DNA from: Bacteroidales bacterium
GTDB taxonomy: Bacteria; Bacteroidota; Bacteroidia; Bacteroidales; UBA3824
Reading direction: 5' to 3'
Assembly: GCA_017960885.1 (NCBI GenBank)
Contig: JAGCYI010000176.1
Span: 27,047-91,046, forward strand
Length of the DNA: 64,000 nucleotides
In this document: positions 90-60,839 of the stretch, piece by piece
Layout: the number at the start of each line of letters is the position of its first letter
How positions within the stretch are numbered: the stretch's first letter is position 1
Made by a program: the position numbers and the translations under genes
Notes under the pieces: model-generated
The model's database searches: none
What the model was told of the DNA's origin: nothing
What the model saw: only the letters and a program-made list of their open reading frames with translations

Positions 90-97
90 TATCTTTG
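90..97 (+). promoter_or_regulatory. candidate Bacteroidetes -7 box (TAtcTTTG) ahead of the upxY-like gene
   Basis: The sequence tatctttg matches TAnnTTTG. No convincing TTTG -33 element lies at the expected spacing. If this box is real, it favours the GTG at 122 as the start codon. Confidence 0.25.
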
Positions 98-984: not shown

Positions 985-1524
985 ATGCTGATGAGGCTAA
1001 AGACCGAACTTGATCCGTTTGACAAGCTGCGACTTCACAAGGCTGCCATAATGCTGGAGGTTTTTAGTAGTCGTAATTGTTTTAATATTTCAGATAGTTA
1101 TAGTGTTTACTATCAGGTTGTTAATCAATTTTCTGAGGAAATCAGGAACTTTCAAACACAATGCAACACCAACACACCTCAGGCATTGGAAAAATTGCTT
1201 TCCACTGTTGACCCCAAAGTTGACGAGTCGTACAAGCGAAGCACACCTTATTTATTACAAAGCGCAGAATTTGTAAATTCTATATCTGACAACACCACCC
1301 TTACAACCGTATCTGCATTGATTGGTATTATCCGAAATTGTGATCACTCTACTATCAACACTATTGCTCCAATCTTAAAAAACTCTGGCTATTCCATTTC
1401 TAACAAAGATATTTTAACATCGTTAATCAATCTCGAAAAATCTGGGGTGATAATAAAAGAAGATGAAGGGTATCAGTTGTCTAGAAATTATAAGGGTGTG
1501 GGCAGATATATCAAGCTGATGTAG
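985..1524 (+). CDS. hypothetical protein in the position normally held by UpxZ (trans-locus inhibitor)
   Basis: The ORF 910..1524 contains an in-frame ATG at 985. The call rests only on gene order, directly after upxY. No motif was recognised. Confidence 0.35.
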   Translation: MLMRLKTELDPFDKLRLHKAAIMLEVFSSRNCFNISDSYSVYYQVVNQFSEEIRNFQTQCNTNTPQALEKLLSTVDPKVDESYKRSTPYLLQSAEFVNSISDNTTLTTVSALIGIIRNCDHSTINTIAPILKNSGYSISNKDILTSLINLEKSGVIIKEDEGYQLSRNYKGVGRYIKLM

Positions 1525-1536
1525 ATTTTGATTAAA

Positions 1537-2286
1537 ATGAAAATACTTAACATTCTTTCTGTATGTTTGATCCTATTGGTATATTCAGTAGTATCATCTT
1601 GTGATTCAACCCCGTTTGCCGACAAAGATTTTGAAGTTAACGGAGTGAAATTCCGTATGATAGCCGTAGAAGGCGGATCATACATGATGGGTGCCACTCC
1701 CGGACAAGGCGAAGATGCCCGTGAAAACGAAAAACCTGCTCACAAGGTAACAGTTGACGATTTCTATATTGGAGAAACCGAGGTAACACAAGAGTTGTGG
1801 TTTGCTGTGATGGGGAATAATCCAAGTTTAAATCCCAGTGATCAAGGAAATTATCCAGTGGAGAATGTTTCCTGGAAGAATGTTCAAGTGTTTATTACGA
1901 AGTTAAATGATATTACTGGTCAGCAATTTCGACTTCCTTTTGAGGAAGAATGGGAGTATGCTGCCAGAGGTGGCAAAAACACAACAGACAAAAAATATGC
2001 GGGTAGTGATGATATTGGGGAAGTAGCGTGGTACAATGAAAATTCAAATGATAAAACACACGCTGTAGCTTCAAAGAAGGCTAATGAATTAGGTATTTAT
2101 GATATGAGTGGAAACGTGTGGGAATTTTGTGAATTGTCAAGTGATGTAAGTATTTGCAATATTAGAGGAGGTTCGGTTGGTAACAAGGCACAATTTCTAC
2201 GCACCTCTTCTCGATATCATCTGCAAACAAAAGTTAAGAATTATTCAGTTGGTTTTCGACTTATTTTAGATATATTGAATAATTAG
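1537..2286 (+). CDS. FGE/SUMF1-domain lipoprotein lacking the catalytic Cys pair
   Basis: Signal peptide plus lipobox: MKILNILSVCLILLVYSVVSSC. FGE-sulfatase fold motifs: GSYMMGA, EKPAHKVTVDDFYIGETEVTQELW, NVSWKNV, GIYDMSGNVWEF, RGGS. The C-terminal RGGSVGNKAQFLRTSSRYH has no Cys residues. The ATG at 1537 is preferred over the TTG at 1528. Confidence 0.75.
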   Translation: MKILNILSVCLILLVYSVVSSCDSTPFADKDFEVNGVKFRMIAVEGGSYMMGATPGQGEDARENEKPAHKVTVDDFYIGETEVTQELWFAVMGNNPSLNPSDQGNYPVENVSWKNVQVFITKLNDITGQQFRLPFEEEWEYAARGGKNTTDKKYAGSDDIGEVAWYNENSNDKTHAVASKKANELGIYDMSGNVWEFCELSSDVSICNIRGGSVGNKAQFLRTSSRYHLQTKVKNYSVGFRLILDILNN

Positions 2287-2294
2287 TTTCTCTA

Positions 2295-3443
2295 ATGAAT
2301 CAAATATTGATTACGGCCACTGTCCCTTCAATGATAGGACAGTTCAATATGGATAATATCGACATTCTTCAGAGTATGGGATGTCAAGTTCATATTGCAT
2401 GTAATTTTAAAGATACCAGCATTTGGCCAACGGAACGTATTGATATGTTTATTAAAAAGTTGGAAGCTAAAAATATAGTCTGCCATCAAATAGATTTTCC
2501 TAGAAATCCTCGTTTTTTATTTAAGGTAATAAAATCAAGCCGTCAATTGAATAATCTGTTGATTACTAATTCTTTTAAATTAATTCATTGCCATACCCCA
2601 TTGGCTGGATGTATATCAAGAATTGTGGCTCACAGACATAAAGTTAAGGTAATATATACGGCTCATGGCTTTCATTTTTATGATGGTGCTCCATTGTTAA
2701 ATTGGTTATTATATTATCCTGTTGAGAAGTTTTTGAGTAGGTGGACTGATATATTGATAACCATTACAAAAGAAGATTTTTCTAGGGCTGTCAATAAATT
2801 TCATGCTCAAAGAGTGGAGTATATATCAGGTGTTGGAATTGATGTAAATCAATTTGTTGTCAACGATATTGGTCGTAATCAAATCCGTGATGGCTTTGGG
2901 TTGCACGACGACGATATTTTATTACTGTCAGTTGGAGGTTTGGACGATAATAAAAACCATAAAGTGGTGTTAAATGCGCTAAAATTATTGAATAATAATA
3001 AATTATATTATTATATTGCTGGAATAGGTCCGTTAAAAGATTATTTGCTAGGTTTGATAAACGAATATGGTATAGCGAATCAAGCCAAGTTGCTTGGGTA
3101 TAGAAGTGATATTCCACAATTGTTAAATGCCGCAGATATATTTATTTTACCTTCAAAACGAGAAGGATTGAATGTGTCCTTAATGGAAGCTATGGCAAGT
3201 GGTCTGCCATGTATCTGTGGAAGAATACGAGGAAATGTGGATCTCATTGAGCAACCTAATGGTGGATTGCTTGTAAATCCTTCAAATGTGGGAGAATATG
3301 TTGAAAGTATTAATCATTTGATTGATAATAAATCGTTCTCCAAAATGGGAGAATTTAATCGCAATTTTATACAAAATTTTGATATTAAGGTGGTTAGAGA
3401 AAAAATGATTGCTATCTATAAATCAATTATTCCTCAAAATTGA
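2295..3443 (+). CDS. glycosyltransferase family 4 (GT-B)
   Basis: The C-terminal EGLNVSLMEAMASGLPCICG motif (E-x7-E type) is typical of GT4. The length is 382 aa. Confidence 0.8.
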   Translation: MNQILITATVPSMIGQFNMDNIDILQSMGCQVHIACNFKDTSIWPTERIDMFIKKLEAKNIVCHQIDFPRNPRFLFKVIKSSRQLNNLLITNSFKLIHCHTPLAGCISRIVAHRHKVKVIYTAHGFHFYDGAPLLNWLLYYPVEKFLSRWTDILITITKEDFSRAVNKFHAQRVEYISGVGIDVNQFVVNDIGRNQIRDGFGLHDDDILLLSVGGLDDNKNHKVVLNALKLLNNNKLYYYIAGIGPLKDYLLGLINEYGIANQAKLLGYRSDIPQLLNAADIFILPSKREGLNVSLMEAMASGLPCICGRIRGNVDLIEQPNGGLLVNPSNVGEYVESINHLIDNKSFSKMGEFNRNFIQNFDIKVVREKMIAIYKSIIPQN

Positions 3444-3472
3444 TTTATAATTACAATTTAATGTTTTTATAA

Positions 3473-4174
3473 ATGAATATAGCTGTTATTTTTGCAGGAG
3501 GTTCTGGACAACGTATGAACCTAGCTACAAAGCCAAAACAATTTTTGGAAGTGCATGGCAAGCCTATTATTATTTACACTTTAGAGCAATTTCAATATTG
3601 TGATCAAATAGATTCCATTGTTCTCGTTAGCCTAAAAGATTGGATTGGTTATTGTAAAGAATTGGCTGATTGTTATAATATTTCAAAACTTAGTGCAATT
3701 GTTGAAGGTGGCGTTACGGGGCAAGAGTCTATTTATCATGGGTTAAGTAAAGCTAAAGAATTGTTTGGCGATGATAATATTGTTTTAATTCATGATGGAG
3801 TTCGCCCTTTAATTGACACTGAAACAATTATAAGAAATATTGCTATGGTTAAGCAAAAACGTTGCGCAATAACAATAGCTCCTGCCATTGAAACGATTTT
3901 TCTAAAGGAGAACGATGGCTCTGTCGGTACTATTATTGATCGTTCTAAATGTCAATTGGCGCGAGCGCCACAAAGTTTTGTTTTGAAAGATATTTTTGAA
4001 GCTCATAACCGAGCTATTAATGATCAGATAGAGTTTATTGATTCTGCAAGTATGATGCAGCATTATGGATATAAATTGTTTTGCGTAGAGGGCAAACCAG
4101 ATAATATCAAAATTACTACATTGCGTGATTACTACTTATTTAAGGCTTTTTTAGAGGCAAATAATCAATTGTAA
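3473..4174 (+). CDS. IspD/TarI-like cytidylyltransferase (candidate ribitol-5-phosphate cytidylyltransferase)
   Basis: The N-terminus AVIFAGGSGQRMNLATKPKQFLEVHGKPIIIYTLE is the IspD/TarI signature. HDGVRP is also present. Confidence 0.75.
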   Translation: MNIAVIFAGGSGQRMNLATKPKQFLEVHGKPIIIYTLEQFQYCDQIDSIVLVSLKDWIGYCKELADCYNISKLSAIVEGGVTGQESIYHGLSKAKELFGDDNIVLIHDGVRPLIDTETIIRNIAMVKQKRCAITIAPAIETIFLKENDGSVGTIIDRSKCQLARAPQSFVLKDIFEAHNRAINDQIEFIDSASMMQHYGYKLFCVEGKPDNIKITTLRDYYLFKAFLEANNQL

Positions 4175-4186
4175 AACTGCTTTGTT

Positions 4187-5245
4187 ATGTGGATAGATAT
4201 TCCAATTTATAAAGAAGATATGGATTATATCCTAAATGTGCCCTTTATTCAATGGAGCGATTTCAAAAATACAAACATATTGATTACAGGAGGTACAGGA
4301 CATATTGGCTCTAATATAATCAATGCTTTATTGTATGTTGATTTGAAGTTGAATTTAAATATAAACATCTATGCGGTTGTTAGAAATCTTGACAAAGCAC
4401 AACGAATGTTTCAAAAGCAATTAGATGTTTCTTCTTCTTTGCATTTTTATGAAGGTTCTGTACAACATCCTATTTCTATTTCAAAACCAATTGATTATGT
4501 AATTCATTGTGCCTCACCCACAGCAAGTCTTGAAATTAACAGCCAGCCTTTGCAAGTGATTTATTCAGGCGTTATAGGCATGGTCAATTTGATTGAAATG
4601 GTTAAGAATACTGGGTGCAAAGGTTTTGTGTATTTGTCTAGTATGGAAGCTTATGGCGAGATTACATCAGAACACTCTCTAAAAGAACATATGTTGGGTT
4701 ATCTCGATTTACAAAATGTTAGAAATTCGTATCCTGAAACAAAGCGTATGTGCGAAATGTTGGTAAAATCAGCCTTTGCTGAATATAATTTACCCGCTAA
4801 GTCTATTCGATTGGCACAAACATTCGGTCCCGGGATTGCTAAAAACGATAGTAGAGTGTTTGCTATGATGGCACGATGTGTTATAAATGGAGATAATATT
4901 ATTCTGAAAACCTCTGGAACTAGTAAACATCCTTATCTGTATACTTCTCAGGCAGTTACTGCTATTATCAGTGTGCTTCGCTATGGTGAGAATGGAAAAG
5001 TGTATAATGCTGCAAATCCGAATACATACTGTTCTATTCAAGAGATGGCTCAATTTGTTTGTTCTGAAATTGCTCATTCTAATATATCAGTTGAATTTGA
5101 TCTTAATTCAGATATTTCCATTTATCCAAAACCCAGTTTTTTGAATATGGATGTTTCTGCATTGTGCTCGTTGGGATGGACATATTCTGGTACTCTAAAA
5201 GATATGTACGAGAGAATGATTTCTTGTATGCAATACGATAATTAA
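4187..5245 (+). CDS. extended SDR, NAD(P)-dependent epimerase/dehydratase/reductase family
   Basis: Rossmann motif ILITGGTGHIGSNI and catalytic YPETK (YxxxK). The gene lies directly after the IspD-like gene, the same pairing seen in fused CDP-ribitol synthases (Bcs1 type). Confidence 0.7.
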   Translation: MWIDIPIYKEDMDYILNVPFIQWSDFKNTNILITGGTGHIGSNIINALLYVDLKLNLNINIYAVVRNLDKAQRMFQKQLDVSSSLHFYEGSVQHPISISKPIDYVIHCASPTASLEINSQPLQVIYSGVIGMVNLIEMVKNTGCKGFVYLSSMEAYGEITSEHSLKEHMLGYLDLQNVRNSYPETKRMCEMLVKSAFAEYNLPAKSIRLAQTFGPGIAKNDSRVFAMMARCVINGDNIILKTSGTSKHPYLYTSQAVTAIISVLRYGENGKVYNAANPNTYCSIQEMAQFVCSEIAHSNISVEFDLNSDISIYPKPSFLNMDVSALCSLGWTYSGTLKDMYERMISCMQYDN

Positions 5246-5246
5246 A

Positions 5247-6161
5247 ATGAGTTTATTTAGTTTAAAATCTGCACTTAATTCTAATACAAACCCTAATGAG
5301 TTTGTGTTGTCTGACGAACTTATTCGTAAATTGCATGTCTTTTTATTGGATATGTTAGAAGATATAGTAAAGGTGCTTGAAAAACATCATCTTCGTTATT
5401 TTGTTGGAGGTGGTAGCTGTTTGGGAGCTATAAGGCATAAAGGTTTTATACCATGGGATGATGATTTGGATATTAATATGCCACGCGAAGATTATGATAA
5501 GTTCGCTTCTGTTTTTGAAACAGAACTAGGCGATAAATATGAGTTGAATGCGCCTAATTATAGTAGTGAAGTAATAAGTAGGTTCCCTAAGGTATTGGCT
5601 AAGAATACACGATATGCTGCTGCGGCATGGAATACTAAACCGCAGTTTGAAAAGGTTTTCATTGATATTTTCACAATGGAAAATGTTCCAGATAATAAGA
5701 TATCTCGCTTTTTTAAGGGCTGTTTCGTTAATTTTTTAGAATTTGTTGCCGGACAGGTTCTTTTATATGATTCTTTTAAGCACAATGATTCATCTATAGT
5801 GAAGAAAAAAATAGGGAAACTTAATTATGGAGTTAGATACCTTATCGGATTGTTGTTCTCTTTACGAGGTTATTCTAAATGGTGCAATTGTATAGATAAA
5901 TCGATTCGATATGAGAATAATAAATCGTTTTATGTGTGCTTTCCAACAGGTAGAAATCATTATTTTGGTGAAATTTTACCTCGTTCAATATTTTTTCCGT
6001 TGAAATCAGTACCTTTTGAAAATAGTTCTGTGTTGGTTCCTTGTCAGTTTCATAACTATTTGAAAAATTTGTACGGAGAAAATTATATGGAATTACCGCC
6101 ACCAGAAAAGCGAGAAAAACATTTTGTATCAATTATTGATTTGCCACAAGCAAATAATTAG
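5247..6161 (+). CDS. LicD-family phosphotransferase
   Basis: RYFVGGGSCLGAIRHKGFIPWDDDLDINMPREDYDKF matches the LicD nucleotidyltransferase-fold core, including the DxD. Confidence 0.8.
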   Translation: MSLFSLKSALNSNTNPNEFVLSDELIRKLHVFLLDMLEDIVKVLEKHHLRYFVGGGSCLGAIRHKGFIPWDDDLDINMPREDYDKFASVFETELGDKYELNAPNYSSEVISRFPKVLAKNTRYAAAAWNTKPQFEKVFIDIFTMENVPDNKISRFFKGCFVNFLEFVAGQVLLYDSFKHNDSSIVKKKIGKLNYGVRYLIGLLFSLRGYSKWCNCIDKSIRYENNKSFYVCFPTGRNHYFGEILPRSIFFPLKSVPFENSSVLVPCQFHNYLKNLYGENYMELPPPEKREKHFVSIIDLPQANN

Positions 6162-6184
6162 TGTGATAAGTTTTTTAATAGTAA

Positions 6185-7339
6185 ATGTCAATGAAATTGC
6201 GTAGAAGGTATATTTTTGGTATTATTTGCAATTTTTTTGTATTGCTATATTTGTTCTTGAATTTTGTAATTAGAGTTTTTGATAATTCTATTATTAGTCT
6301 TCGTCTATGTCTATTTTCTCTGCTTGTTTCTTGTGTGTGCTCATTTTTTTGTTATTCAAAAAAGAATTATTTATGCTTTTTGTATATTTTATTATTTATC
6401 GTTTCATGGTTTATAGAATTGATATTCAAGCCAGAATGGCAATATAGTTTCGACTATTTTGTTTATTCTGTGTCTTATATGTTGGTGGCTATGTTTTTAG
6501 TTCAGTGGAGTCAACAAGTATTTGCCTTGCGGGTGTTGTTTATTTTCGTGATGGTAAGTATTCTTGTGAAATTATTGTTGTTTGATACTCCTATACGAGA
6601 GTTTATGTTAGACGAGTCGTCTTATAATTTTATTAGTGTTTTAGCTTTGCTATATTTTGGATTGTATTGTCTTACGCTAATCAAAAATAATAAACCTCTT
6701 TCATTAAAAGATGGTTTTTTGTTTCTCGTTGTATGTTGCTTGGCTTACGGACGAGGTGGTATTATTTCGGCATTGTGTTTTTTAGGTCTCCTCTTAGTAT
6801 ATAAATTTTATAACGCACGGATAAGCGCCAATAAAAAAGTGTTAATTGGTTTTCTCGTGCTGTTGTCCATTATATTTTTTCATAGTCTGTTGCTTGATCG
6901 TTTAAGCGATTACGAAATATTTGGCAAGTTTAAGAAAATGGGGATGGAGAGTAACGGACGAGCTGATATTTGGCTTAAATTTATCAACAATTCATTTTCA
7001 AGTTTTAAAGATTTTATATTGGGTGCCAATCCAGCAAAAATATTTACCGAAGGTAACTTACATAATTCTTATTTGCAAATGTATGCCAATTTTGGTTTCG
7101 TTTTTTTTATTTCAAATGTATTTATTACTATTTTAATTCTTATCTATTATTCGCGAAAAAGAAGTAGAAATATTTGGCTTTTGATACTTTTTGTTACTTT
7201 TATTGTCAGGGCCTTGTTGGATAGAGTTTGTTTTAGGGGTCATTGCGAAATCCTATATTTTTATTTTATTTTTAATTTCTTTATTGATATATCAACAAAA
7301 AATAAAGTTGTTGATTGTAAATTATACAAATCATTGTAA
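6185..7339 (+). CDS. wzy: Wzy-like O-antigen/capsule polymerase (polytopic membrane protein)
   Basis: A 384-aa, very hydrophobic multi-helix protein with a larger loop around GMESNGRADIWLKF. It sits between glycosyltransferases and is very AT-rich. Confidence 0.55.
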   Translation: MSMKLRRRYIFGIICNFFVLLYLFLNFVIRVFDNSIISLRLCLFSLLVSCVCSFFCYSKKNYLCFLYILLFIVSWFIELIFKPEWQYSFDYFVYSVSYMLVAMFLVQWSQQVFALRVLFIFVMVSILVKLLLFDTPIREFMLDESSYNFISVLALLYFGLYCLTLIKNNKPLSLKDGFLFLVVCCLAYGRGGIISALCFLGLLLVYKFYNARISANKKVLIGFLVLLSIIFFHSLLLDRLSDYEIFGKFKKMGMESNGRADIWLKFINNSFSSFKDFILGANPAKIFTEGNLHNSYLQMYANFGFVFFISNVFITILILIYYSRKRSRNIWLLILFVTFIVRALLDRVCFRGHCEILYFYFIFNFFIDISTKNKVVDCKLYKSL

Positions 7340-7357
7340 AACTAGCATTGGTATCTT

Positions 7358-8485
7358 ATGTCATTAAAAGCACAAATATGTTATGTATGTACAACACCAT
7401 TTCAGATTATGAATGCTGTTTCTATGTGCGTTACCAATAAAGAGGTTGCCGATTTGTATATTGTTCCTCAATTTGCAGGAGCTGAATCCTATTTTAACAG
7501 AATTAAGGCGTTGAATGTGTTCCAAGTTGTGTCATTAATTAATGATGATTTTGTTCCTTATAAACGATTTTCGAATAAGATTCTCATTCATTTGTTATTA
7601 TTCTGGATTTATTTGAGAATTAAGAAGTTTGTTAAACCTATTTTGGTGCCTGATTCTGAATATAAAAGTATATTTATTTCATCAAAAGCATTAATAGGAA
7701 GATTAATATGTCTTTATCATATTCGTGCTAAATGTAATTCATCGTTTTTTTATTTTGATGATGGAGAAGGTAGTTATGATAATCCTAACTTATATTTGCC
7801 TCGTTTTTGGGATTCTTTTTTGAGAAAGCTCTTTTTCGGTAAAAGAGGTGTTGTATTAAGCCAAACAATGTATTTGTATTCGCCTGAATTACATAGTATT
7901 ATTAATCCATCCAGTACTTTAACTATTCATAAAATATCACCTTGGATTAACAATGATTATGTATTAAATATCATAAATTTTATTGCTGACTTTGATTCTC
8001 AAAAGCGAATTTCTGAAAATGTTATTTTGATAGATTCCATTGCAGATGAAACATTTGACTCAGAAAATTGTAAGTTATATAAACGAATGTGCCTAAAAGT
8101 TAATGAATTTTTTGGGAATGATATTATTTATAAAAAACATCCGCGAGATAAAACAACTTATGATGGTGCTAACATTAAAATTTATGAGTATTCGTCAATC
8201 CCATTTGAAGTTCTTTGTGCTAATATAGATATTTCCAACAAAGTGCTAATTGTGGCTGCTTCTACGGCTGTTTGCACTCCAAAGGTTTTGTTTAACGCTG
8301 AACCTTATGTTGTTTTGATGTATAAGTTTGTGAAATGTAATCAGCTTGCTGTTAAACAGGACGATTATTATCAGTCAATTAAGAATACATATAAGGATAA
8401 AAGTAGATTTTTAATTCCTGAATCAGAGCAAGATTTTGTAGATTGCTTGACTCGAATTAGAGCTGATATTTATGGTAAAGGATAA
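7358..8485 (+). CDS. GT52-like glycosyltransferase (candidate sialyl/Kdn-transferase)
   Basis: The N-terminus ICYVCTTPFQIMNAV resembles the GT52 opening. An FDDGEGS (D-D-G) motif lies at aa 134-136, ILIDSIADE follows, and KKHPRD (H-P) lies at aa 261-262. The spacing resembles the Neisseria Lst as recalled. Confidence 0.55.
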   Translation: MSLKAQICYVCTTPFQIMNAVSMCVTNKEVADLYIVPQFAGAESYFNRIKALNVFQVVSLINDDFVPYKRFSNKILIHLLLFWIYLRIKKFVKPILVPDSEYKSIFISSKALIGRLICLYHIRAKCNSSFFYFDDGEGSYDNPNLYLPRFWDSFLRKLFFGKRGVVLSQTMYLYSPELHSIINPSSTLTIHKISPWINNDYVLNIINFIADFDSQKRISENVILIDSIADETFDSENCKLYKRMCLKVNEFFGNDIIYKKHPRDKTTYDGANIKIYEYSSIPFEVLCANIDISNKVLIVAASTAVCTPKVLFNAEPYVVLMYKFVKCNQLAVKQDDYYQSIKNTYKDKSRFLIPESEQDFVDCLTRIRADIYGKG

Positions 8486-8575
8486 CTTATCATATAATTG
8501 CTATGGGGTCCTTGTTGAGCTAAGGTACCATTGTTACTGATTTTAATAAAAACTCTTTTTTCTTCATTTTTATCA

Positions 8576-9184
8576 ATGTATAAACATTTTGCCAAACGTA
8601 TATTGGATTTTTTGTTTTCTTTAATGTCTATATTGTTGATAGGTTGGATTATAGGCATTGTAGCATTATGGCTTCATTTCGCCAACAAAGGGGCGGGTGC
8701 TTTTTTCCTTCAATCTCGTCCTGGGAAAAATGGTAAAATATTTAAGGTCATCAAATTTAAAACTATGACCGACGAAAAAGATGAAAATGGCAATCTTTTG
8801 CCCGATGAAAAACGTCTTACAAAAATAGGGAAATTTATCCGATCAACATCAATTGATGAGCTACCTCAGATAATAAACGTTTTGAAAGGAGATATGTCGT
8901 TGATAGGCCCGCGACCATTATTAGTACAATATCTACCTTTATATACTAAGGAACAAGCACGAAGGCATGAAGTTCGACCTGGAATTACAGGCTGGGCTCA
9001 GTGTCATGGTCGTAATGCTATTTCATGGACACAAAAATTTGAATTGGATGTTTGGTATGTCGACAATATTTCCTTTATTGTGGATATTAAAATATTTTTT
9101 CTGACGATAAAAAAAGTTTTCATGCGTGAAGGTATTTCTCAGGAGGGAAATGCCACAATGGAATTTTTTAACGGACATAATTAG
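8576..9184 (+). CDS. small monotopic phosphoglycosyl transferase (PglC/WcfS-like bacterial sugar transferase)
   Basis: Motifs [40 protein letters not shown] and GITGWAQ. The ATG at 8576 is preferred over the TTG at 8531. Confidence 0.85.
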
Positions 9185-9187
9185 GAT

Positions 9188-9772
9188 ATGTATTTATATG
9201 GTGCAAGTGGTCATGCAAAAGTGATTATAGATATTCTGTTGGCATGTGGTATTTCTATTGATGGGTTGATTGATGATAATCCAAACATCAATTCTTTATT
9301 AACCTATCCAGTATATCATAATAAGTTAGATTTGTCTCCTATTATTGTTAGTGTTGGGAATAATTATGTTCGCAAATCTATTGTGGAAAAACTATTCGGA
9401 GAATTTGGTAAGGCTATTCATCCCTCTGCAATTGTCTCTCCTAATGCCTTTATCGATATAGGAACAGTTGTAATGCCAGGGGCTATTGTTAATTCTGGAA
9501 CCTCGATTGGAAAGCATTGTATTTTAAATACTGGTGTTTCTATCGACCATGAATGTGTTGTTGAAGATTATGTACACATTTCACCTCATGCTACTTTATG
9601 TGGCAATGTCAAGGTCGGAGAGGGTTCTTGGATAGGTGCAGGGGCTGTTGTTATTCAGGGTGTTGAAATAGGCAAGTGGAGTCAAATTGGTGCTGGTTCG
9701 GTGGTAACAAAAAATATCCCCGACAATGTACTCGCTTATGGTAATAATTGCAAGATAATCAAAAAGATATAA
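9188..9772 (+). CDS. PglD/NeuD-family sugar N-acetyltransferase (left-handed beta-helix)
   Basis: N-terminal Rossmann-like LYGASGHAKVIIDIL followed by hexapeptide repeats (GKHCILNTGVSIDHECVVEDYVHISPHATLCGNVKVGEGSWIGAGAVV). Confidence 0.8.
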   Translation: MYLYGASGHAKVIIDILLACGISIDGLIDDNPNINSLLTYPVYHNKLDLSPIIVSVGNNYVRKSIVEKLFGEFGKAIHPSAIVSPNAFIDIGTVVMPGAIVNSGTSIGKHCILNTGVSIDHECVVEDYVHISPHATLCGNVKVGEGSWIGAGAVVIQGVEIGKWSQIGAGSVVTKNIPDNVLAYGNNCKIIKKI

Positions 9773-9798
9773 TAGCTATCCTTCCTACGTATAAAGCA

Positions 9799-11328
9799 AT
9801 GGATAAATCGCAAAACAACACTAAGCGTTTAGCGAAAAACACATTATTGCTCTACTTCCGCCAAATCCTAATAATGCTGGTGTCGTTGTACACCGTTAGG
9901 GTGGTGTTGAAAGTACTTGGAGAGGAAGACTACGGTATTTATAACGTTGTGGCGGGTATTGTTACGATGTTCAGTTTTCTGACATCTACTATGGCTTCGG
10001 CAAGCCAACGATACTTAGCTGTGGACTTAACCACAGGCGATCTCACCAAACAAAAACAAACGTTCGGACTAATTTTATGGACATACATTTTGCTGATAAT
10101 TGCCACAGTAGTACTCGCTGAAAGCATTGCAGTGTGGTTTTTGAATGCAAAAATGACCATCCCTGACAATAGGCTGTATGCTGCAAATTGGGTGTTGCAG
10201 GCGGCTATACTGATGTTTGTTGTCAATATTATTGCCACGCCATATCTCTCTGCCGTAATTGCTCATGAAAAAATGGGTGTTTACGCATACGTGAGCATTT
10301 TTGATGCAGTATTAAAATTAGCAATAGTGTTCGTTTTGGAAGTTATGTCTTACGACAAACTAATACTTTACGCTGTTTTATTGTTAACTAGTTCAATTTT
10401 GGCAACTTCTTGTTATATATTATATTGTAGAAAGACATTTCCCGAATGTAAGGCAAATTTGTTTTACGACAAACAGCAAATGAAAGAAATGACCGCATTT
10501 GCCTGGTGGAATATGATTGGAACAGTTGCTAATCTTCTTAGAAGTCAAGGAATTAATGTATTACTGAATCTGTTTTTCAATCCTACAATCAATGCGGCAA
10601 GAGCAATTGCCTATCAAATAAACAATGCAATTATATCATTTTCAAATAATTTTTATACCGCAGTAAAACCTCAAATTATCAAGAGTTACGCTGCTGGTGA
10701 AAATGAGAGGATGATTCATTTGATTACGTCAAGTTCAAGGCTTGCGTTTTTCTTAGTTTTTATGTTGTCGCTACCAGTATATCTTAATATCGACTTTATG
10801 CTGAAACTCTGGCTCGAAAATCCGCCTGAGTATGCATGCCTGTTTTCCAAATTGGTGCTAATCAATATTTTACTCGAAGTTTTCAGTATGCCACTTGTAA
10901 CAGGATTGCAAGCAACGGGGAATATAAAAAGATATCAATCGGTAATATCAGTTATATATTTGCTCAATATTCCAATTTCGTATGTGTTGTTGAGATGCGG
11001 TTATCCGCCAGAAATAACGATGTACGTCAACATTGCTTTGGTGATGATTAGTTTCACGCCACGACTTCTGATATGCAAGAAATATTATTCGTTGTCTATA
11101 CAAGAGTATATGAAAAGCGTTTTACTCAAAACATTATTAGTCACAGCAATTTGTTATACAGCAAACTATTATTTGCTTAGATTGTTTGACGCTAATACTG
11201 TTGTAAATTTGTGCATTTCTTGTGTTGCGATTATTTTTGTTACAGGGTTTGTGATATTATTTATAGGGTTACAAAATGCTGAAAGGCAGTTAATTGCTAA
11301 TAAAATCAAATCTATAATTCATCGTTAG
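9799..11328 (+). CDS. wzx: Wzx-type oligosaccharide flippase (MOP superfamily)
   Basis: The opening RLAKNTLLLYFRQILIMLVSLYTVRVVLKVLGEEDYGIYNVV is typical of polysaccharide-biosynthesis flippases, followed by about 12 or more hydrophobic segments. The ATG at 9799 is preferred. Confidence 0.8.
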   Translation: MDKSQNNTKRLAKNTLLLYFRQILIMLVSLYTVRVVLKVLGEEDYGIYNVVAGIVTMFSFLTSTMASASQRYLAVDLTTGDLTKQKQTFGLILWTYILLIIATVVLAESIAVWFLNAKMTIPDNRLYAANWVLQAAILMFVVNIIATPYLSAVIAHEKMGVYAYVSIFDAVLKLAIVFVLEVMSYDKLILYAVLLLTSSILATSCYILYCRKTFPECKANLFYDKQQMKEMTAFAWWNMIGTVANLLRSQGINVLLNLFFNPTINAARAIAYQINNAIISFSNNFYTAVKPQIIKSYAAGENERMIHLITSSSRLAFFLVFMLSLPVYLNIDFMLKLWLENPPEYACLFSKLVLINILLEVFSMPLVTGLQATGNIKRYQSVISVIYLLNIPISYVLLRCGYPPEITMYVNIALVMISFTPRLLICKKYYSLSIQEYMKSVLLKTLLVTAICYTANYYLLRLFDANTVVNLCISCVAIIFVTGFVILFIGLQNAERQLIANKIKSIIHR

Positions 11329-11329
11329 A

Positions 11330-12502
11330 ATGGCCAATATTATTCGTTGTGCTTTGGGCAAAATCAAACGTAGAGCCAAAATGTATGTCCAAAGATATTA
11401 TGACAGATTCCCTTTTTTGATTAAAAGCCAGCCCAAAGGCGAAAAACGCGCAGTCCATATTTCTGCATTTTCATACGGTAATGCTGGAGATACATTGCTG
11501 CCTGTGGTTTTGCGTGACTTATTTAACGATACAATTGGTATTAAACAATGGCGCAGCGTGGATTTGCATGTGGAAGTCAGGAAATCTGATGTGAGATTTT
11601 ATAATAAAAAAGACTTCGTTGTAATTGGAGGTGGCGGATTATTTTTGAAAGATACAGGTGCAAATGACAATAGTGGCTGGCAATGGAATTGTAGTATTGA
11701 CAATTTAGCTAAAATCAATAAACCCATTATTGCTTTCGCAATTGGCTACAATAGATTCAGAGGTCAAGATGATTTTGAACCAATTTTCACTCAACATTTT
11801 AATCGTTTTGTTGAGCAAGTTAAGTTCATTGGCATTAGGAATCATGGCAGTATCGAAAAATTAAAAAAATACCTTAATTCTGATGCATTGAAAAACAAAC
11901 TGGTATATCAACCTTGCATGACTACTCTGATTTCCAAAATATATCCTCATTTGTACAATTACAGAGCTAAGGATAATTGTGTTGCTTTCAATTGTGCTTT
12001 TGACAGAGCTCAGTTGCGTTCTTCATCAGACCAATATTTACACGCCATAGCAAAAGTAGCAAAATCATTGTCCGAAAAAACTAAAATAAGGTTTTATTCA
12101 CATATTCATTCCGACACATTGGCTTTAAAATATTTTGATGAATACAAGGTGGATTATGAACTTGTTGAATTCAAAAACGTAGGTCAAATTGTTGAATGTT
12201 ATTCACAACCTAGGCTTGTAATTGGAATGAGAGGACATGCCCAAATGATTCCATTTGGATGCGGGACACCCATTCTGTCGATTATTTCTCACGACAAAAT
12301 GCAGTGGTTTCTTGATGATATTCACCATCCAGAATGGGGATGTGACGTTTTGGATAGTGATTTTGAAAACCAACTTATGCAAAAATCACATTCGCTTTTC
12401 GATAATTATGAACAATGTATAGATGATATTGAAGAAGCAAAAAAAATGCTTTGGTCTGTAACATTGGAAAATATGGCAAAAATTAAAGATATACTTAAAT
12501 AA
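11330..12502 (+). CDS. polysaccharide pyruvyl transferase family protein
   Basis: SAFSYGNAGDTLLPVVLRDLF and VIGGGGLF are the motifs of the CsaB/WcaK-type pyruvyl transferase family. Confidence 0.7.
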   Translation: MANIIRCALGKIKRRAKMYVQRYYDRFPFLIKSQPKGEKRAVHISAFSYGNAGDTLLPVVLRDLFNDTIGIKQWRSVDLHVEVRKSDVRFYNKKDFVVIGGGGLFLKDTGANDNSGWQWNCSIDNLAKINKPIIAFAIGYNRFRGQDDFEPIFTQHFNRFVEQVKFIGIRNHGSIEKLKKYLNSDALKNKLVYQPCMTTLISKIYPHLYNYRAKDNCVAFNCAFDRAQLRSSSDQYLHAIAKVAKSLSEKTKIRFYSHIHSDTLALKYFDEYKVDYELVEFKNVGQIVECYSQPRLVIGMRGHAQMIPFGCGTPILSIISHDKMQWFLDDIHHPEWGCDVLDSDFENQLMQKSHSLFDNYEQCIDDIEEAKKMLWSVTLENMAKIKDILK

Positions 12503-45094: not shown

Positions 45095-45252
45095 TGTATG
45101 GTTTGTTTTGTTAAGCGGGTGCAAAGTAACGGGGTTTTTGCCACCTGACCAAACAAAAGGCGTTAAACATTCGCAAAGTTTTGATTAAGACCATTATACA
45201 ATGCGTAATGCAAAATTTATAATTCATAGTACTTTTGGTAATGCAGAATTTT

Positions 45253-45297
45253 AATGCATAATTCATAATGCATAATTCATAATAAATAATTCATAAT
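45253..45297. repeat. ATGCAT-core repeat patch, ATAATGC orientation (left arm)
   Basis: aatgcataattcataatgcataattcataataaataattcataat has a roughly 14-bp period. Confidence 0.8.
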
Positions 45298-47257: not shown

Positions 47258-47308
47258 GTTAATGCAATATTAATAATGCATAATTCTTAATGCATAATGC
47301 ATGATGCA
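47258..47308. repeat. ATGCAT-core repeat patch (ATAATGC orientation)
   Basis: gttaatgcaatattaataatgcataattcttaatgcataatgcatgatgcaaaat lies between a terminator and the nusB upstream region. Confidence 0.8.
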
Positions 47309-47311
47309 AAA

Positions 47312-47344
47312 TAAAAAAGCGGAAGATTTTCTTCCGCTTTTTTG
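47312..47344 (-). terminator. rho-independent terminator of the T9SS beta-helix gene
   Basis: The aagcggaaga/tcttccgctt stem is flanked by A and T runs. It lies 20 nt beyond the stop codon. Confidence 0.8.
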
Positions 47345-47363
47345 TACTTGTTGTTGTCTGTTG

Positions 47364-49604
47364 TTAGTTTACCGACAATTTGAAGGTTTTTCCGTTTATC
47401 GTTACTACATATATGCCGGGTTTGGCAATCTGTATTTCTTCGTGTGTAGATTTTGTTGTTGCTGATTGTATCATACGGCCTTGAAGGTCGATGATGGTGT
47501 ATTTGGCGTCGGCTTCGGTTTCGATGTAAATGGTGTTGCTATAAGCCCATACTTTTGTTGCGTCAATGGTTTCGGCAAGTTCGTTTACAGGAGTGCCAGG
47601 GTTAGTTTGTTCTTGAATAAACTCTGCAGAAACTGTAACGTTGCCTTCGGGCATGGTGAACTTGCCGTCGGTTACGGTTACGTCGTTGCCGTTATTGTCT
47701 TTTACAATGAATTCTTTGAGTTTGTAACCTGCGGCGGGGTAAGTGGTGAGTGTAATAGTTTCGCCGTTGAATGCTTTCAAGGGTGATGCTTTTACAATGC
47801 CGTTCTGCGCGTCGGATACTGTGATGGTGTAGTATGCCGAGGGAGAGGGAACGAGTTTTTTGCCGTTTAATGTTTCCCAGTTGATAGTGCTGGCGCTGGT
47901 GTAGGTTTGTGTAGAGTTGCCTTCTACAATGAATGTCTTGCCTTCGTCAATAGCTATTTTGTCGGCGATATAACCGTTGGCAATAATATAGTCGGATGCT
48001 TTGGTATAGCCGAGTATTACTTTAGAACAAGTTGCATCTTGACCTTTGCCTATTCCGGCAGCTTTGCTTCCGCTTACATCTACCATAGTTTTGCCCATAG
48101 CGGTAATTTGACCACCTTTGATGGTGATGTCGCCGCACGAACTATAACGTCCTCCGCCAATACCTGCTGCACCATTTCCGCCGGTAGCTTTGATAGTGCC
48201 ACTTTCAATGACGATATTGCCGCAAGGTATTTTACTCCATCCTGCACCTATGCCGGCAGCTACTCCGTTGCTGCTTGCATCGAGCGCACCTGTGCCTTTG
48301 ATGGTTAAAGTTTTGTCTACAGGTACATAGATGCCCGGATATTCAGAATCGAAACCTTTGACAATGTTTTTAGCTACTAAATTGATAGTGGCATCGCCTA
48401 AGCAAGTAATGCCTGCCCATGCGTAGTTTTCATCGTTTTCTCCTTCAATTGTAACACCGTGGAGTGTGACTGTGGCACCGTCTTTAATGGTGATTTTGTA
48501 GTTGCCATTGAGTGTGCCTGTGAGAATATCGTTGTTTTTAGCTTCGTAATTGCCGGTTAAAGTAGATAAGTCTACCATATTGCCTTGATACCATTGAGCA
48601 TACAGTGTTAAGGTGCTACCCGGTGTGCTGATGTCGGTAACAAATTCGGCATTGGCGTATGAAGTGCCTGAGCCGTCTTTTTCGGTGTTCCAACCGATAA
48701 ATTTATAACCCGAACGGGTAAATGCATTTTGCGGCATATGTGTTGGGAATCCGGGCAATAGAGTAAGGCTTGCCATTTCGCCTGAGCCGCCATTGGCTTC
48801 AAATACTACATTGTATGATTTTAATGACGGAGTGAATGTTACAGATTCACCTTCGATACTTTCGGATGTAACAAAATCGCCAAGTGTGATAGTGCCGCAA
48901 GTGCTAGATTTGCTGCCAGCTACACCAATGCAATATGGAGCATATTCGCCTTTGGTGGCAGTTACAGAAGTAACGGTGTTAGTAATGATGATGTTGCCGC
49001 CTTTGTTGCCTTCTCCGCTGCCTATGCCCGGAGCATTATTGCCACCTGTGGCGGTTACAGTGCCTCCCTTGATGGTGATGTTGCCGCTTGTTTGGTTTTT
49101 GCCACCGCCTATACCTGGTGCATAATTTCCACCTGTGGCATTGATAATGCCGCCTTCGATAAGAATGTTGCCGCTGGCTTTGTTGAATAAACCGCCTATG
49201 CCGCAAGCATTTGACTTGCCGTAAGCATTAAGTTTGCCAGATCCTGTAATGGTTAATGTAGAGCCATCGGGCACAAAAATACCCGCACTTTCGTAAAATC
49301 CCTTTACAGTGTTTTCACCTTCTAAGATGATGGTGGCGTTACCTAAGCATGTGAGTCCAGAATAATTGAAGCTCTGGTTTAATTCTTCAGTTCCATTGAT
49401 AATAGCGTTATTGAGGGTGATGGAGGCACCGTCGGCGATTGTGATTCTGCAGTTGATGCCGAGTGTGCCGGTGAGTATTTGTCCGTTGGTAACGGGTAAT
49501 GTGTTTGCTGAAACCTTCGAAAGGTCTACTGTGTTGTTTTGTGCCTGCCCCGCTGTGGCGGCAAACACAAATGCTGATAGCATTAATAGGTGTAGCTTTT
49601 TCAT
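47364..49604 (-). CDS. T9SS-secreted beta-helix surface protein with an internal module duplication and a Listeria-Bacteroides repeat
   Basis: The signal peptide is MKKLHLLMLSAFVFAATAGQAQ. Two homologous roughly 200-aa modules carry reiterated ATGGN-x-APGIGGG motifs. FEANGGSGEM...GYKFIGWNTEKDGSGTSY...LYAQW is a Listeria-Bacteroides repeat. The C-terminus IYVVTINGKTFKLSVN is a T9SS sorting domain. ATG 49604 is preferred. Confidence 0.8.
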   Translation of the reverse strand: MKKLHLLMLSAFVFAATAGQAQNNTVDLSKVSANTLPVTNGQILTGTLGINCRITIADGASITLNNAIINGTEELNQSFNYSGLTCLGNATIILEGENTVKGFYESAGIFVPDGSTLTITGSGKLNAYGKSNACGIGGLFNKASGNILIEGGIINATGGNYAPGIGGGKNQTSGNITIKGGTVTATGGNNAPGIGSGEGNKGGNIIITNTVTSVTATKGEYAPYCIGVAGSKSSTCGTITLGDFVTSESIEGESVTFTPSLKSYNVVFEANGGSGEMASLTLLPGFPTHMPQNAFTRSGYKFIGWNTEKDGSGTSYANAEFVTDISTPGSTLTLYAQWYQGNMVDLSTLTGNYEAKNNDILTGTLNGNYKITIKDGATVTLHGVTIEGENDENYAWAGITCLGDATINLVAKNIVKGFDSEYPGIYVPVDKTLTIKGTGALDASSNGVAAGIGAGWSKIPCGNIVIESGTIKATGGNGAAGIGGGRYSSCGDITIKGGQITAMGKTMVDVSGSKAAGIGKGQDATCSKVILGYTKASDYIIANGYIADKIAIDEGKTFIVEGNSTQTYTSASTINWETLNGKKLVPSPSAYYTITVSDAQNGIVKASPLKAFNGETITLTTYPAAGYKLKEFIVKDNNGNDVTVTDGKFTMPEGNVTVSAEFIQEQTNPGTPVNELAETIDATKVWAYSNTIYIETEADAKYTIIDLQGRMIQSATTKSTHEEIQIAKPGIYVVTINGKTFKLSVN

Positions 49605-49634
49605 TTTTTTTAATAGTTCATAAAATTTAAGATG

Positions 49635-49642
49635 CAAAGGTA
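49635..49642 (-). promoter_or_regulatory. candidate -7 box (TAccTTTG on the minus strand) for the T9SS beta-helix gene
   Basis: The plus-strand caaaggta lies 31-38 nt upstream of ATG 49604. Only a partial -33 element (TTGTG) is present. Confidence 0.35.
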
Positions 49643-49669
49643 GAATTTTTTTTTGTACACACAAGTGGA

Positions 49670-49690
49670 TTGATAAATAGATTTTATCAA
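49670..49690. promoter_or_regulatory. operator-like inverted repeat TTGATAAA-N5-TTTATCAA
   Basis: A perfect 8-bp inverted repeat overlaps the expected -33 region of the T9SS gene promoter. Additional ATTGAT/ATCAAT half-sites are adjacent. Confidence 0.35.
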
Positions 49691-49734
49691 TAATCAATTA
49701 GTTTTGTCGTAGAATTACGGGTATACACATTTTG

Positions 49735-50145
49735 TTATATGGCTATATAGGCACTATATCATATGGCTATATAGGTACGGATGCCTGCTTGCAGATGCCT
49801 GTCTCACAGATAACCCCGCACATCAGCGCCGCCGGGGCGGCTCGATGTACACATATATCATATGGCTATATAGGTACTATATCATATGGCTATATAGGCA
49901 CTATACCATATGGCTATATAGGCACTATACCATATGGCTATATAGGTACGGATGCCTACTCACAGATGCCTGTCTCACAGATAACCCCGCACATCAGCGC
50001 CGCCGGGGCGGCTCGATGTACACATATATCATATGGCTATATAGGCACTATACCATATGGCTATATAGGCACGGATGCCTATCTCACAGATGCCTGTCTC
50101 ACAGATAACCCCGCACATCAGCGCCGCCGGGGCGGCTCGATGTAC
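49735..50145. repeat. nested tandem-repeat array: 8 x 24-bp unit interleaved with 3 x 72-73-bp unit
   Basis: The 24-bp unit (c/t)CATATGGCTATATAGG(c/t)ACTATA has its ATATGG at 49737, 49761, 49860, 49884, 49908, 49932, 50031 and 50055. The long unit GGATGCCT..CTCACAGATGCCTGTCTCACAGATAACCCCGCACATCAGCGCCGCCGGGGCGGCTCGATGTAC occurs at 49779-49850, 49950-50021 and 50073-50145. Confidence 0.95.
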
Positions 50146-50190
50146 GGGGTTACAGAGATACCGTCTTCCAGACGGTTATAAGGATACTCA

Positions 50191-50221
50191 TAAAAAAGAG
50201 CGGGTGCCGCAGCAGCCCGCC
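50191..50221 (-). terminator. candidate rho-independent terminator of the 239-aa gene
   Basis: The minus strand reads gcgggctgctgcggcacccgc (5-6 bp GC stem) followed by tCTTTTTT. It lies 28 nt after the stop codon. Confidence 0.5.
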
Positions 50222-50248
50222 CATTTCAAGGAAAGAATGGAATATTTT

Positions 50249-50968
50249 TTACTGTTCTTTTTTCTTGGCCCTTACCGTAGCCATAAACTTGATGGTGGCG
50301 GCTGTTTCGGCAAAGATGGTGTTGTATGATTTTACCAGCTCGGTTTCGCTGCCGCCAAGGCAGTCTTGAGCATATTTTATTGATGTGAGCAGTTTTTGAA
50401 TATTTTTTACCACCGTGTCGCGGGCTGTTACCACTGCCTTGCTTTTGTCTACTTTAACATCCACGCGCGAATTGATTGTGGAGCGGTATTCCTCCACGAT
50501 CGACTCCATGTCGGCAAGAATGGCGGCGGCGCCAATGGTTTCAAAATCTTCGGCGGGAAGTTGCTTCAAACTTGAAAGCACGTTTTCCAGCTTTGAAATA
50601 GCCTCGCTTTTGAGCGCAAACACTGTAGTGATTTTTACAAATTTGGGTTCAATTTTGGCAGCAGCCTTGCCCTGAGCCTCTATGCCGCTGTTTTTTGATG
50701 TGGTGATGCATCCGTATAGCGCGGTGTAGCGCTTTTTGAGGGTGTCTAAGTACTGCTGCGACAGCACTGTGGTCTGTGTGGTTTTTTCCTTGGTTTTGGC
50801 ATCGGTAAATTCGGCGGCCGATTTTTTAAGCTCGGCAATCATCTCTTTGGTCACCTTTTCTTTGGCCACTCCGCCAGCCTTTACAAGTTTTGCTACTAAC
50901 TCTGAGAGCATATCTGTTCTCATTCTGTGTATCGATACACCTGACATTGATATTTGTACGTTTGACAT
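50249..50968 (-). CDS. hypothetical all-helical protein (239 aa)
   Basis: The composition is Lys/Ala/Glu/Thr-rich and low in Pro and Gly. There is no signal peptide and no recognised motif. A consensus promoter lies upstream. Confidence 0.55.
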   Translation of the reverse strand: MSNVQISMSGVSIHRMRTDMLSELVAKLVKAGGVAKEKVTKEMIAELKKSAAEFTDAKTKEKTTQTTVLSQQYLDTLKKRYTALYGCITTSKNSGIEAQGKAAAKIEPKFVKITTVFALKSEAISKLENVLSSLKQLPAEDFETIGAAAILADMESIVEEYRSTINSRVDVKVDKSKAVVTARDTVVKNIQKLLTSIKYAQDCLGGSETELVKSYNTIFAETAATIKFMATVRAKKKEQ

Positions 50969-51008
50969 TTTATATAATATTAGGTTTATGAATAAATTTC
51001 CTATGCTG

Positions 51009-51040
51009 CAAAAGTAAAGTAAAAAATATCAATATGCAAA
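51009..51040 (-). promoter_or_regulatory. consensus Bacteroidetes promoter (TTTG-N20-TActTTTG on the minus strand)
   Basis: On the plus strand, caaaagta at 51009-51016 and caaa at 51037-51040 are separated by 20 nt. The element lies 41 nt upstream of ATG 50968. Confidence 0.5.
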
Positions 51041-51089
51041 CAAAATGTACAAAATTTTAAAAATAAATTAATTTTTTTTGAGTCAGGTG

Positions 51090-51100
51090 ATACAATGTAT
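51090..51100. promoter_or_regulatory. 11-bp palindrome ATACAATGTAT (copy 1)
   Basis: A perfect palindrome within gATACAATGTATag. An identical 14-mer recurs 171 bp downstream. Confidence 0.4.
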
Positions 51101-51260
51101 AGTCCCGATTGTAATTTTGCTCATTTTATCTTATACAATATACTGATTTATATAAATTTTGATTAATTGTATTATATGATTGGTATAGTCTAATATATTA
51201 ATATTTAGTTGCATACATTTGTGTTTGTAGATTGTGTTTAAAATATTATAAATACATTAG

Positions 51261-51271
51261 ATACAATGTAT
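51261..51271. promoter_or_regulatory. 11-bp palindrome ATACAATGTAT (copy 2)
   Basis: An identical 14-mer gATACAATGTATag, flanked by further TACATT/AATGTA and ATTGTAT half-sites. Confidence 0.4.
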
Positions 51272-51623
51272 AGATAATTATATTGTATGATAAATGCACC
51301 CTTTTGCGTGCGTAACCGACAGATACTTATTGATTTTGTATATAATGCAATCCTTTATAATGCTCCGCCTACTATATATGCATATAATTGCGCCACAAAA
51401 ATGATATAATTGTTTATATCTTGCTGTAAATGCAAAAGTTCCGCGATTTTTGCCCTCGGCATATTGTATGTTTTGCTCAACCATTAGTACACTGCGTTTT
51501 ACGCATTGTATTGATGGCGTCAATTAACCTAAAATTCAAACAGCAGGTGCAACAATTTGCACATAAATTGTGTTTAATTAAATAGAATAGATTGTGCAAA
51601 TTCATAACCTTGTGTTTAACAAA

Positions 51624-60717: not shown

Positions 60718-60765
60718 AAAAGGAAGGTGAAAAGTGGATAACCCATTTTTCACCTTCCTTTTTAA
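60718..60765 (+). terminator. strong rho-independent terminator of the giant gene
   Basis: aaaggaaggtgaaaa/ttttcaccttccttt forms a roughly 15-bp perfect stem with a 13-nt loop, followed by a T run. Confidence 0.85.
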
Positions 60766-60839
60766 TTATGCATTATGCATTATGCATTATGCATTATGCA
60801 TTATGCATTATGCATTGTGCATTGTGCATTATGCATTAA
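60765..60839. repeat. heptanucleotide microsatellite (GCATTAT)n, about 10 units with two GCATTGT variants
   Basis: attatgcattatgcattatgcattatgcattatgcattatgcattgtgcattgtgcattatgcattaat. The last unit supplies the final codons and the TAA stop of the convergent PP2C gene. Confidence 0.95.

Follow-up and report, generated by a model that had tools for sequence, protein, structure and literature searches.

Nested higher-order repeats are known from eukaryotic rDNA spacers and satellites. The locus described here resembles them in its (x^n X)^m architecture and apparently in its concerted evolution, but it is bacterial and only 0.4 kb long; no bacterial case emerged from a search of the literature on nested tandem repeats. 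In enterobacteria, BIME-2 REP arrays consist of hairpin palindromes amplified in tandem with linkers, are intergenic and vary in number between strains, and the present array is alike in all these respects. REP/BIME elements, however, occur as hundreds of dispersed copies in alternating orientation, whereas the copies here are all direct and were found at one locus. Plasmid iterons and sopC of F are direct repeats of approximately 20–43 bp with internal palindromes; the array, in contrast, is chromosomal, has no rep/par gene among the listed genes and shows no similarity to plasmids.

Two further systems offer closer comparisons. Bacterial intergenic VNTRs, such as MIRU-VNTR and the promoter repeats of M. 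tuberculosis, likewise have head-to-tail units of tens of bp near a promoter and a copy number that varies by strain and is hidden by short-read assemblies, and in M. tuberculosis the copy-number variation of promoter-proximal tandem repeats matters (PMC12817950). The present array differs in having three levels of nesting, two interleaved unit types and a distribution seemingly limited to one species-level lineage. BrickBuilt of P. gingivalis shares with it a Bacteroidales host and a tandem, spacerless unit of about 23–24 nt that is intergenic and species-specific, but BrickBuilt has a leader and a tail, inverted-repeat ends and 19 occurrences per genome, whereas our array has no terminal inverted repeats and was found at one locus only (PMC4596501).

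The array was found in a contig from an uncultured Bacteroidales bacterium, within a stretch of 64,000 nucleotides that was analysed as a whole (hereafter the window). It spans 49731–50145 and can be written as [24a 24b] L1 aca [24c 24d 24e 24f] L2 aca [24g 24h] L3, with the following parts:

49731–49778, plus strand: 24-mer run 1, two copies, with 3 and 0 mismatches
49779–49850, plus strand: long unit L1, 72 nt, sub-repeats GATGCCTGCTTGCA and GATGCCTGTCTCACA (14–15 nt), then the 46-nt hairpin core
49851–49853: ACA linker ahead of run 2
49854–49949, plus strand: 24-mer run 2, four exact copies, varying at positions 5 and 22 only
49950–50021, plus strand: long unit L2, 72 nt
50022–50024: ACA linker ahead of run 3
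50025–50072, plus strand: 24-mer run 3, two copies
50073–50145, plus strand: long unit L3, 73 nt, with an extra base in the first sub-repeat

The 24-mer TATAYCATATGGCTATATAGGYAC had eight matches, all on the plus strand and in runs of two, four and two (starts at 49731, 49755, 49854, 49878, 49902, 49926, 50025 and 50049), and the L core had three exact copies; neither was found in shuffled sequences. These counts confirm the initial annotation, which had described the 2-4-2 runs and a long unit present three times, and place the array start at 49731. Seven of the eight 24-mers are exact. Copy 1, with its three mismatches, blends into the unique flank and is probably the founder copy. Two palindromes, CATATG and CTATATAG, stand side by side in the 24-mer, and each run is closed by one long unit L of 72–73 nt (n = 3). 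The internal direct repeat ascribed earlier to L is real: units of 14–15 nt are in turn repeated in tandem through the 5′ half of L, with four variants of GATGCCTnnCTCACA and then a decayed third copy, GATAACCCCG-CACA. A 46-nt core, CACAGATAACCCCGCACATCAGCGCCGCCGGGGCGGCTCGATGT(A/G)C, is the portion kept in every L copy. TRF and a repeat search recovered periods of 24, 15, 171 and 124. The long units start at 49779, 49950 and 50073, so that the spacing of 171 and then 123 bp given in the initial annotation holds for the starts, the two values differing by two 24-mers; measured between ends, the spacings are 171 and 124, because L3 carries one extra base. The longest exact repeat inside the array, read from the sequence, is about 85 nt. 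Head-to-tail units of between 10 and a few hundred bp thus follow one another without unique spacers, as in a bacterial minisatellite or VNTR. Judged from this arrangement, the nesting appears to comprise three levels of head-to-tail duplication, of 14–15 nt, 24 nt and 123/171 nt. A CRISPR array was rejected, as it had been from the start, because both unit types repeat and no cas domains are present within 10 kb.

The array lies in a non-coding intergenic region between two minus-strand genes, together with several other features:

47278–50183, no strand assigned: 2.9-kb segment with T9SS gene, promoter, array and hairpin hp, missing from relative L011
47364–49604, minus strand: 746-aa T9SS cargo gene, the downstream neighbour
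49635–49642, minus strand: TAccTTTG, a -7 box of Bacteroidetes type belonging to the T9SS cargo gene
49669–49691, no strand assigned: operator-like inverted repeat ATTGATAAA-N5-TTTATCAAT, perfect over 9 bp, between array and promoter
50106–50152, no strand assigned: H, an imperfect palindrome of 47 nt, to which L3 contributes its 3′ part and the flank GGGGTTA the rest
50160–50176, no strand assigned: hp, a hairpin with a 7-bp stem (ACCGTCT-TCC-AGACGGT), directly after H
50176–50187, minus strand: gene 3′-end relic GTATCCTTATAA (V-S-L-stop), matching GTATCATTATAA, the end of the 888-aa gene of contig L029
50192–50220, minus strand: intrinsic-terminator-like hairpin and T-run of the 239-aa gene
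50249–50968, minus strand: 239-aa gene, the upstream neighbour and border of a variable slot

The GC-rich palindrome reported earlier is present, but it is not a whole element: in the terminal copy it forms the tip of the longer H, TAACCCCGCACATC-agc-GCCGCC-gg-GGCGGC-tc-GATGTACGGGGTTA, whose stems of 8, 5 and 5 bp are separated by small internal loops. The internal L copies have no such outer stem. The 7-bp-stem hairpin described behind the array also proved real, and H together with hp gave a folding z of -4.7.

The T9SS product contains Flg_new, a beta-helix repeat, DUF6383 and a weak Por_Secre_tail. Its -7 box is the only TAnnTTTG box on the gene's strand and lies 89–93 nt from the array edge, close to the roughly 95 nt estimated initially; the repeats are upstream of the -33 region, not between promoter elements, and no promoter motif was found inside the array. 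The inverted repeat at 49669–49691, about 40 nt from the array, is identical in the related MAG Bacteroidales bacterium Tb.RUG.368 and is likely the operator of some regulator. On the other side, the terminator of the 239-aa gene is kept in relatives without the array. Hence the array sits between that gene's terminator and the promoter and operator-like repeat of the T9SS gene. A scan for sigma-70 promoters and terminators used a model that is uninformative for Bacteroidetes. A 149-aa ORF across the array was rejected as an artefact, in keeping with the initial view of the encoded peptide, since its frame is broken by one 25-nt unit in Tb.RUG.368. For the 239-aa protein, sequence searches of Pfam, NCBIfam, PADLOC and PDB gave nothing significant, and its family comprises only 19 clusters, each of them from uncultured Bacteroidales. 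It was considered as a DNA-binding partner of the array and discarded, given that it has no domain match and that relatives possess the gene but not the array. Farther upstream, a 625-bp AT-rich spacer (50969–51593) separates the 239-aa gene from a divergent 3031-aa T9SS gene, and in one assembly a 68-aa ORF is called within it (L001 9485–9691).

We compared the array with the orthologous region in related sequences (three-digit numbers such as L001 refer to these sequences and not to repeat units). The alleles were as follows:

Window: 2-L-4-L-2-L (three L and eight 24-mers)
L001/L024: 2-L only (one L and two 24-mers), an L1-type unit being joined straight to the right flank
L025 (SRR12529115): the first two 24-mers, then an L2-type unit
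Tb.RUG.368: an incomplete L core, then four 24-mers, of which one measures 25 nt, and one L

Four different array alleles were thus present among five sources, although the evidence for polymorphism comes mostly from short-read metagenome assemblies, which can collapse repeats, and coverage of Tb.RUG.368 is only about 3x. L001 and L024 belong to the same species, and their flanks are 100% identical to the window over approximately 250 nt on each side. Since the longest exact repeat is about 85 nt, an assembly at k = 141 should resolve the window allele, and the short L001 allele is therefore probably real. In L025, a 31-mer joins a T-type 24-mer to an L2-type unit, and no such 31-mer exists in the window. 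The short-read contigs L002–L004, L025 and L026 end at or within the array. Copy number accordingly differs between strains, as in a VNTR, in L001, L025 and Tb.RUG.368, all judged on short-read assemblies. The unit gain or loss proposed initially is thereby borne out, and the comparison of close strains that had been suggested did reveal a difference, with one L and two 24-mers in L001 against three and eight in the window. Further, copies are uniform within a genome: GATGTAC occurs in 4/4 cases in the window species and GATGTGC in 3/3 in Tb.RUG.368, which indicates homogenisation or recent expansion. The variants of the 14–15-nt sub-repeat are combined differently in the window species and in Tb.RUG.368. 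Uniform copies and reshuffled sub-repeats together are signs of concerted evolution and unequal exchange.

Short heptamer repeats of one family (TAATGCA/ATTATGC, AATTATG/TTCATAA) are common in the intergenic regions of this lineage, e.g., at 45239–45297, 47270–47310 and 60765–60838 of the window and at 1140–1249, 3661–3747 and 5703–5817 of L005. They lie upstream of the -7 boxes of nusB, the 160-aa gene described below and the T9SS gene of Tb.RUG.368, and others follow terminators or border the 2.9-kb indel. On the downstream side of the T9SS gene, 5.7 copies were counted in the window and 12.4 in Tb.RUG.368, and between array and promoter Tb.RUG.368 has 15.7 copies (TTCATAA/TTCAGAA) over approximately 110 bp. 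The heptamers could be promoter-upstream elements or recombination hot spots. Being common, and with a copy number that differs between the window species and Tb.RUG.368, they suggest that the lineage is repeat-prone.

No other locus with either unit was found. An exact search for a 27-mer of the L core matched one of 185,579 species genomes, namely Tb.RUG.368, at the orthologous locus only. In JGI metagenomes, the 24-mer core was found at the same locus on the Tb.RUG.368 contig and in three unrelated single-copy matches (L007–L009, soil and other contigs), which we judged to be due to chance. The search for both units elsewhere that had been called for thus returned, besides chance single matches, only the orthologous locus of Tb.RUG.368. 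Pattern scans of IMG/VR with both units gave no match, a blastn search with one higher-order unit gave none in PLSDB plasmids or INPHARED phages, and the window holds no other copy of either unit; the genome-wide searches used exact patterns, by which diverged copies elsewhere would be missed. Neither the 24-mer nor L was present in relatives whose 239-aa protein is 96, 89, 87, 86, 76, 63 or 59% identical. On these searches the array appears limited to one species-level lineage and to one locus, which argues against a MITE, a REP-like or an otherwise dispersed element, and its absence from relatives with 59–96% identity of the 239-aa protein suggests that it is young.

The region between the 239-aa gene and nusB has a different content in every relative examined. 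In L011 it is empty, the 239-aa gene leading directly into nusB; L020 has a different surface-protein gene, L013 and L014 a convergent gene, L016 three small genes (DUF7724, DUF7723 and DUF4160), and L023 a 310-aa gene. A pair of genes encoding 160 and 151 aa occupies the slot in L021, L027–L031 and L043. These comparisons show a gene-replacement hotspot, where accessory genes have been swapped repeatedly. In Tb.RUG.368, the 160/151-aa pair is carried on an insert of 1177 bp flanked on either side by a 77-bp copy of H+hp, the two copies being direct repeats, and the window, which has no such module, has exactly the single-copy H+hp form. The DNA of the module is 95% identical between Tb.RUG.368 and L021 while the adjacent 239-aa gene is only 68% identical, so the module has recently passed between lineages. 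In L021, L027–L031 and L043 neither H nor hp lies beside it, and the difference between the window and Tb.RUG.368 is therefore better read as ordinary recombination between the 77-bp repeats. The slot holds surface-protein genes and small modules, possibly defence-related, that are exchanged between lineages.

Several observations concern the module itself. It is located at approximately 79.8–80.8 kb of Tb.RUG.368 contig JAEERW010000009.1 (L005/L006) and at 6794–7815 of L021. The two genes overlap at ATGA and have their own TAtcTTTG promoter and hairpin terminator. The module had no match in Pfam or NCBIfam, and the 160-aa protein showed a weak similarity (E = 2e-7) to the C-terminal end of the PADLOC defence candidate PDC-M32A. 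The terminator element TTGGAGTGCRGACGGCTCGTCYGCC was located at L043 466–482 and 1224–1240, L021 6794–6810 and L006 7800–7816; in L043 it flanks the module on both sides as inverted copies, its orientation in Tb.RUG.368 is opposite to that in L021, and the window does not contain it. Possibly this hairpin is a small element that can move or invert. Elsewhere in the window, positions 1–12000 form a run of same-strand genes with a GC content of 31–36%, against 42% for the whole window, and may represent a horizontally acquired locus.

The flank of the array retains traces of a lost gene. The hairpin hp and TTATAAGGATAC (50160–50187) match the start of contig L029, right after the stop codon of an 888-aa gene whose product is a BspA/DUF285-type T9SS protein. 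The last codons are GTA TCA TTA TAA in L029 and GTA TCC TTA TAA in the window (minus strand), and Tb.RUG.368 carries the exact L029 version of this 12-mer. From these matches we infer that the 239-aa gene was formerly followed by a T9SS gene, of which deletion left only the last four codons, and that hp was the 3′ flank of this gene. H probably belongs to the flank of that lost gene too, as it abuts hp in both the window species and Tb.RUG.368; L029 ends before the position of H. A search with the 888-aa protein was dominated by members of the large BspA/LRR family, and the matches listed included no close orthologue. The heptanucleotide TACACAT is present in the left flank and at every joint from L to a 24-mer, as expected if the 171-bp unit is a duplicated, once-unique segment.

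Taken together, we consider it probable that the array is a young higher-order minisatellite (VNTR), hypermutable and strain-variable, that formed at a single locus, within the gene-replacement hotspot, around a hairpin which a lost surface-protein gene had left behind. The array would have grown in intergenic DNA upstream of the T9SS surface-protein gene, in what had been a spacer between two surface-protein genes, from a seed that would have included the palindromic pair H and hp, likely remnants of the deleted T9SS gene. Unit number would shift by replication slippage or by unequal homologous recombination between the direct repeats of 24–170 bp, probably promoted by hairpin-forming palindromes that stall replication, and gene conversion or unequal exchange would hold the copies alike within one genome. 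Recombination between the 77-bp H+hp repeats could also explain why the window lacks the two-gene module and has one copy of the repeat. An edge copy that merges gradually into unique flank, such as the first 24-mer, is what the start of a tandem duplication looks like, and repeated rounds of duplication are sufficient for the nested architecture, so no special mechanism is needed. Most likely the array itself performs no sequence-specific function. If it has an effect, this may be a by-product, through altered length or structure of the DNA that leads from the upstream terminators to the T9SS promoter and operator-like repeat.

Some features sit uneasily with this minisatellite reading. Two adjacent palindromes per 24-mer suit a dimeric DNA-binding protein, chance duplication does not explain why a palindrome-bearing sequence was amplified, and contingency repeats classically lie, as this array does, just ahead of a surface-protein promoter. 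The array might instead be a cis-regulatory platform or contingency locus, with the 24-mers as binding sites for a dimeric regulator or a nucleoid protein and a unit number that tunes or switches the T9SS promoter, comparable to the promoter tandem repeats of M. tuberculosis and the repeats upstream of Haemophilus hmw. Besides the paired palindromes, its position (89–93 nt ahead of the -7 box, with the operator-like repeat some 40 nt away), a strain-variable copy number with a surface protein as target, and the heptamer repeat in the same upstream region of Tb.RUG.368 are consistent with such a role, and copy-number variation of promoter tandem repeats has been documented elsewhere (PMC12817950). 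Nevertheless, the array is missing from close relatives in which both flanking gene families are retained and from relatives with a related downstream gene or the same gene neighbourhood, and its distance to the promoter is not conserved, being approximately 110 bp greater in Tb.RUG.368. The Pfam labels within 10 kb, where several genes are unannotated, include no regulator; the first palindrome is broken in some units (TCATATGG in the window, AATATGG in Tb.RUG.368); and unit lengths of 24, 123 and 171 bp put successive copies out of helical phase. We therefore regard promoter tuning as rather unlikely, and the iteron-like protein-binding platform proposed in the initial annotation is not supported: there is no rep/par domain among the listed genes, no DnaA-box cluster at the array and no co-occurring regulator gene. 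The array does resemble iterons or sopC in its direct repeats of approximately 24 bp and their internal palindromes, but the context is that of chromosomal housekeeping genes (nusB, yajC) and no plasmid similarity was detected. An iteron or centromere-like site of a replicon or integrated element is thus nearly refuted and seems extremely improbable. A replication origin was rejected as well, with neither a DnaA-box cluster nor a skew switch at the array.

Other readings start from the hairpins. H+hp could be an att- or attC-like recombination site for small gene modules, with the array as stacked empty sites. The 1177-bp insert of Tb.RUG.368, a module with promoter and terminator bounded by the 77-bp H+hp, would then have the window as its single-copy product, the module moves between lineages (95% DNA identity against 68% for the 239-aa gene), and H is long and imperfect, with small bulges and AAC...GTT at its base. 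The same module, however, occupies the same slot in L021, L027–L031 and L043 with neither hairpin, and the identity of the 77-bp repeats runs well past the palindrome on both sides, for which homologous recombination or duplication is a better fit than a defined crossover point. Moreover, no integrase or recombinase domain is listed within 10 kb, the attC R''/R' consensus (RYYYAAC/GTTRRRY) is not matched as judged by eye, and the internal L copies have no outer stem. Such a site is improbable. That H+hp belongs to an undescribed cassette-exchange system of gut or rumen Bacteroidales, in which the three L units are empty sites and the 160/151-aa module is a cassette, is a further proposal that we rate as decidedly improbable. 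A mobile repeat family, either a MITE like BrickBuilt or a REP/BIME-like cluster, would account for the stable hairpins in the array and for the assembly breaks there, and BrickBuilt is a precedent for an intergenic 23-nt minisatellite within a MITE in another Bacteroidales member (PMC4596501). Against it, there are no terminal inverted repeats (0 inverted pairs in 49600–50300), the array was found at a single locus in the one genome in which it occurs, the collections scanned yielded no other, and the 64-kb window has no further copy. A MITE was rejected for the missing terminal inverted repeats and for want of dispersed copies in exact-pattern and blastn searches, a REP/BIME cluster for its uniformly direct copies at one locus, which makes a mobile family very improbable. 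Equally doubtful is a structured non-coding repeat RNA transcribed from the array, as the initial annotation had also considered. Both strands fold far better than shuffled sequences (z = -5.5 and -5.9), but such z-scores are expected of any tandem array of palindromes. No Rfam family was matched in a scan of 48.5–51.5 kb at E<=1, which yielded only a sub-threshold L20-leader match on the neighbouring terminator. The lone plus-strand -7-like box that could drive transcription into the array (TAGTTTTG, 49699) is within chance expectation and not kept in Tb.RUG.368, and relatives have no array at all.

Overall, the locus is a real, non-chance feature and most likely an ordinary but unusually elaborate hypervariable repeat. 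Gut Bacteroidales are best known for their invertible promoters. If unit number does tune T9SS expression, the array would add a large-unit contingency locus to this group and would matter more than a minisatellite; it would matter most if the hairpin were a site of gene-module exchange. If the minisatellite reading is true, the array would be a fast-evolving strain marker that explains why short-read assemblies break here, and a clear bacterial nested repeat whose birth and concerted evolution are still visible.
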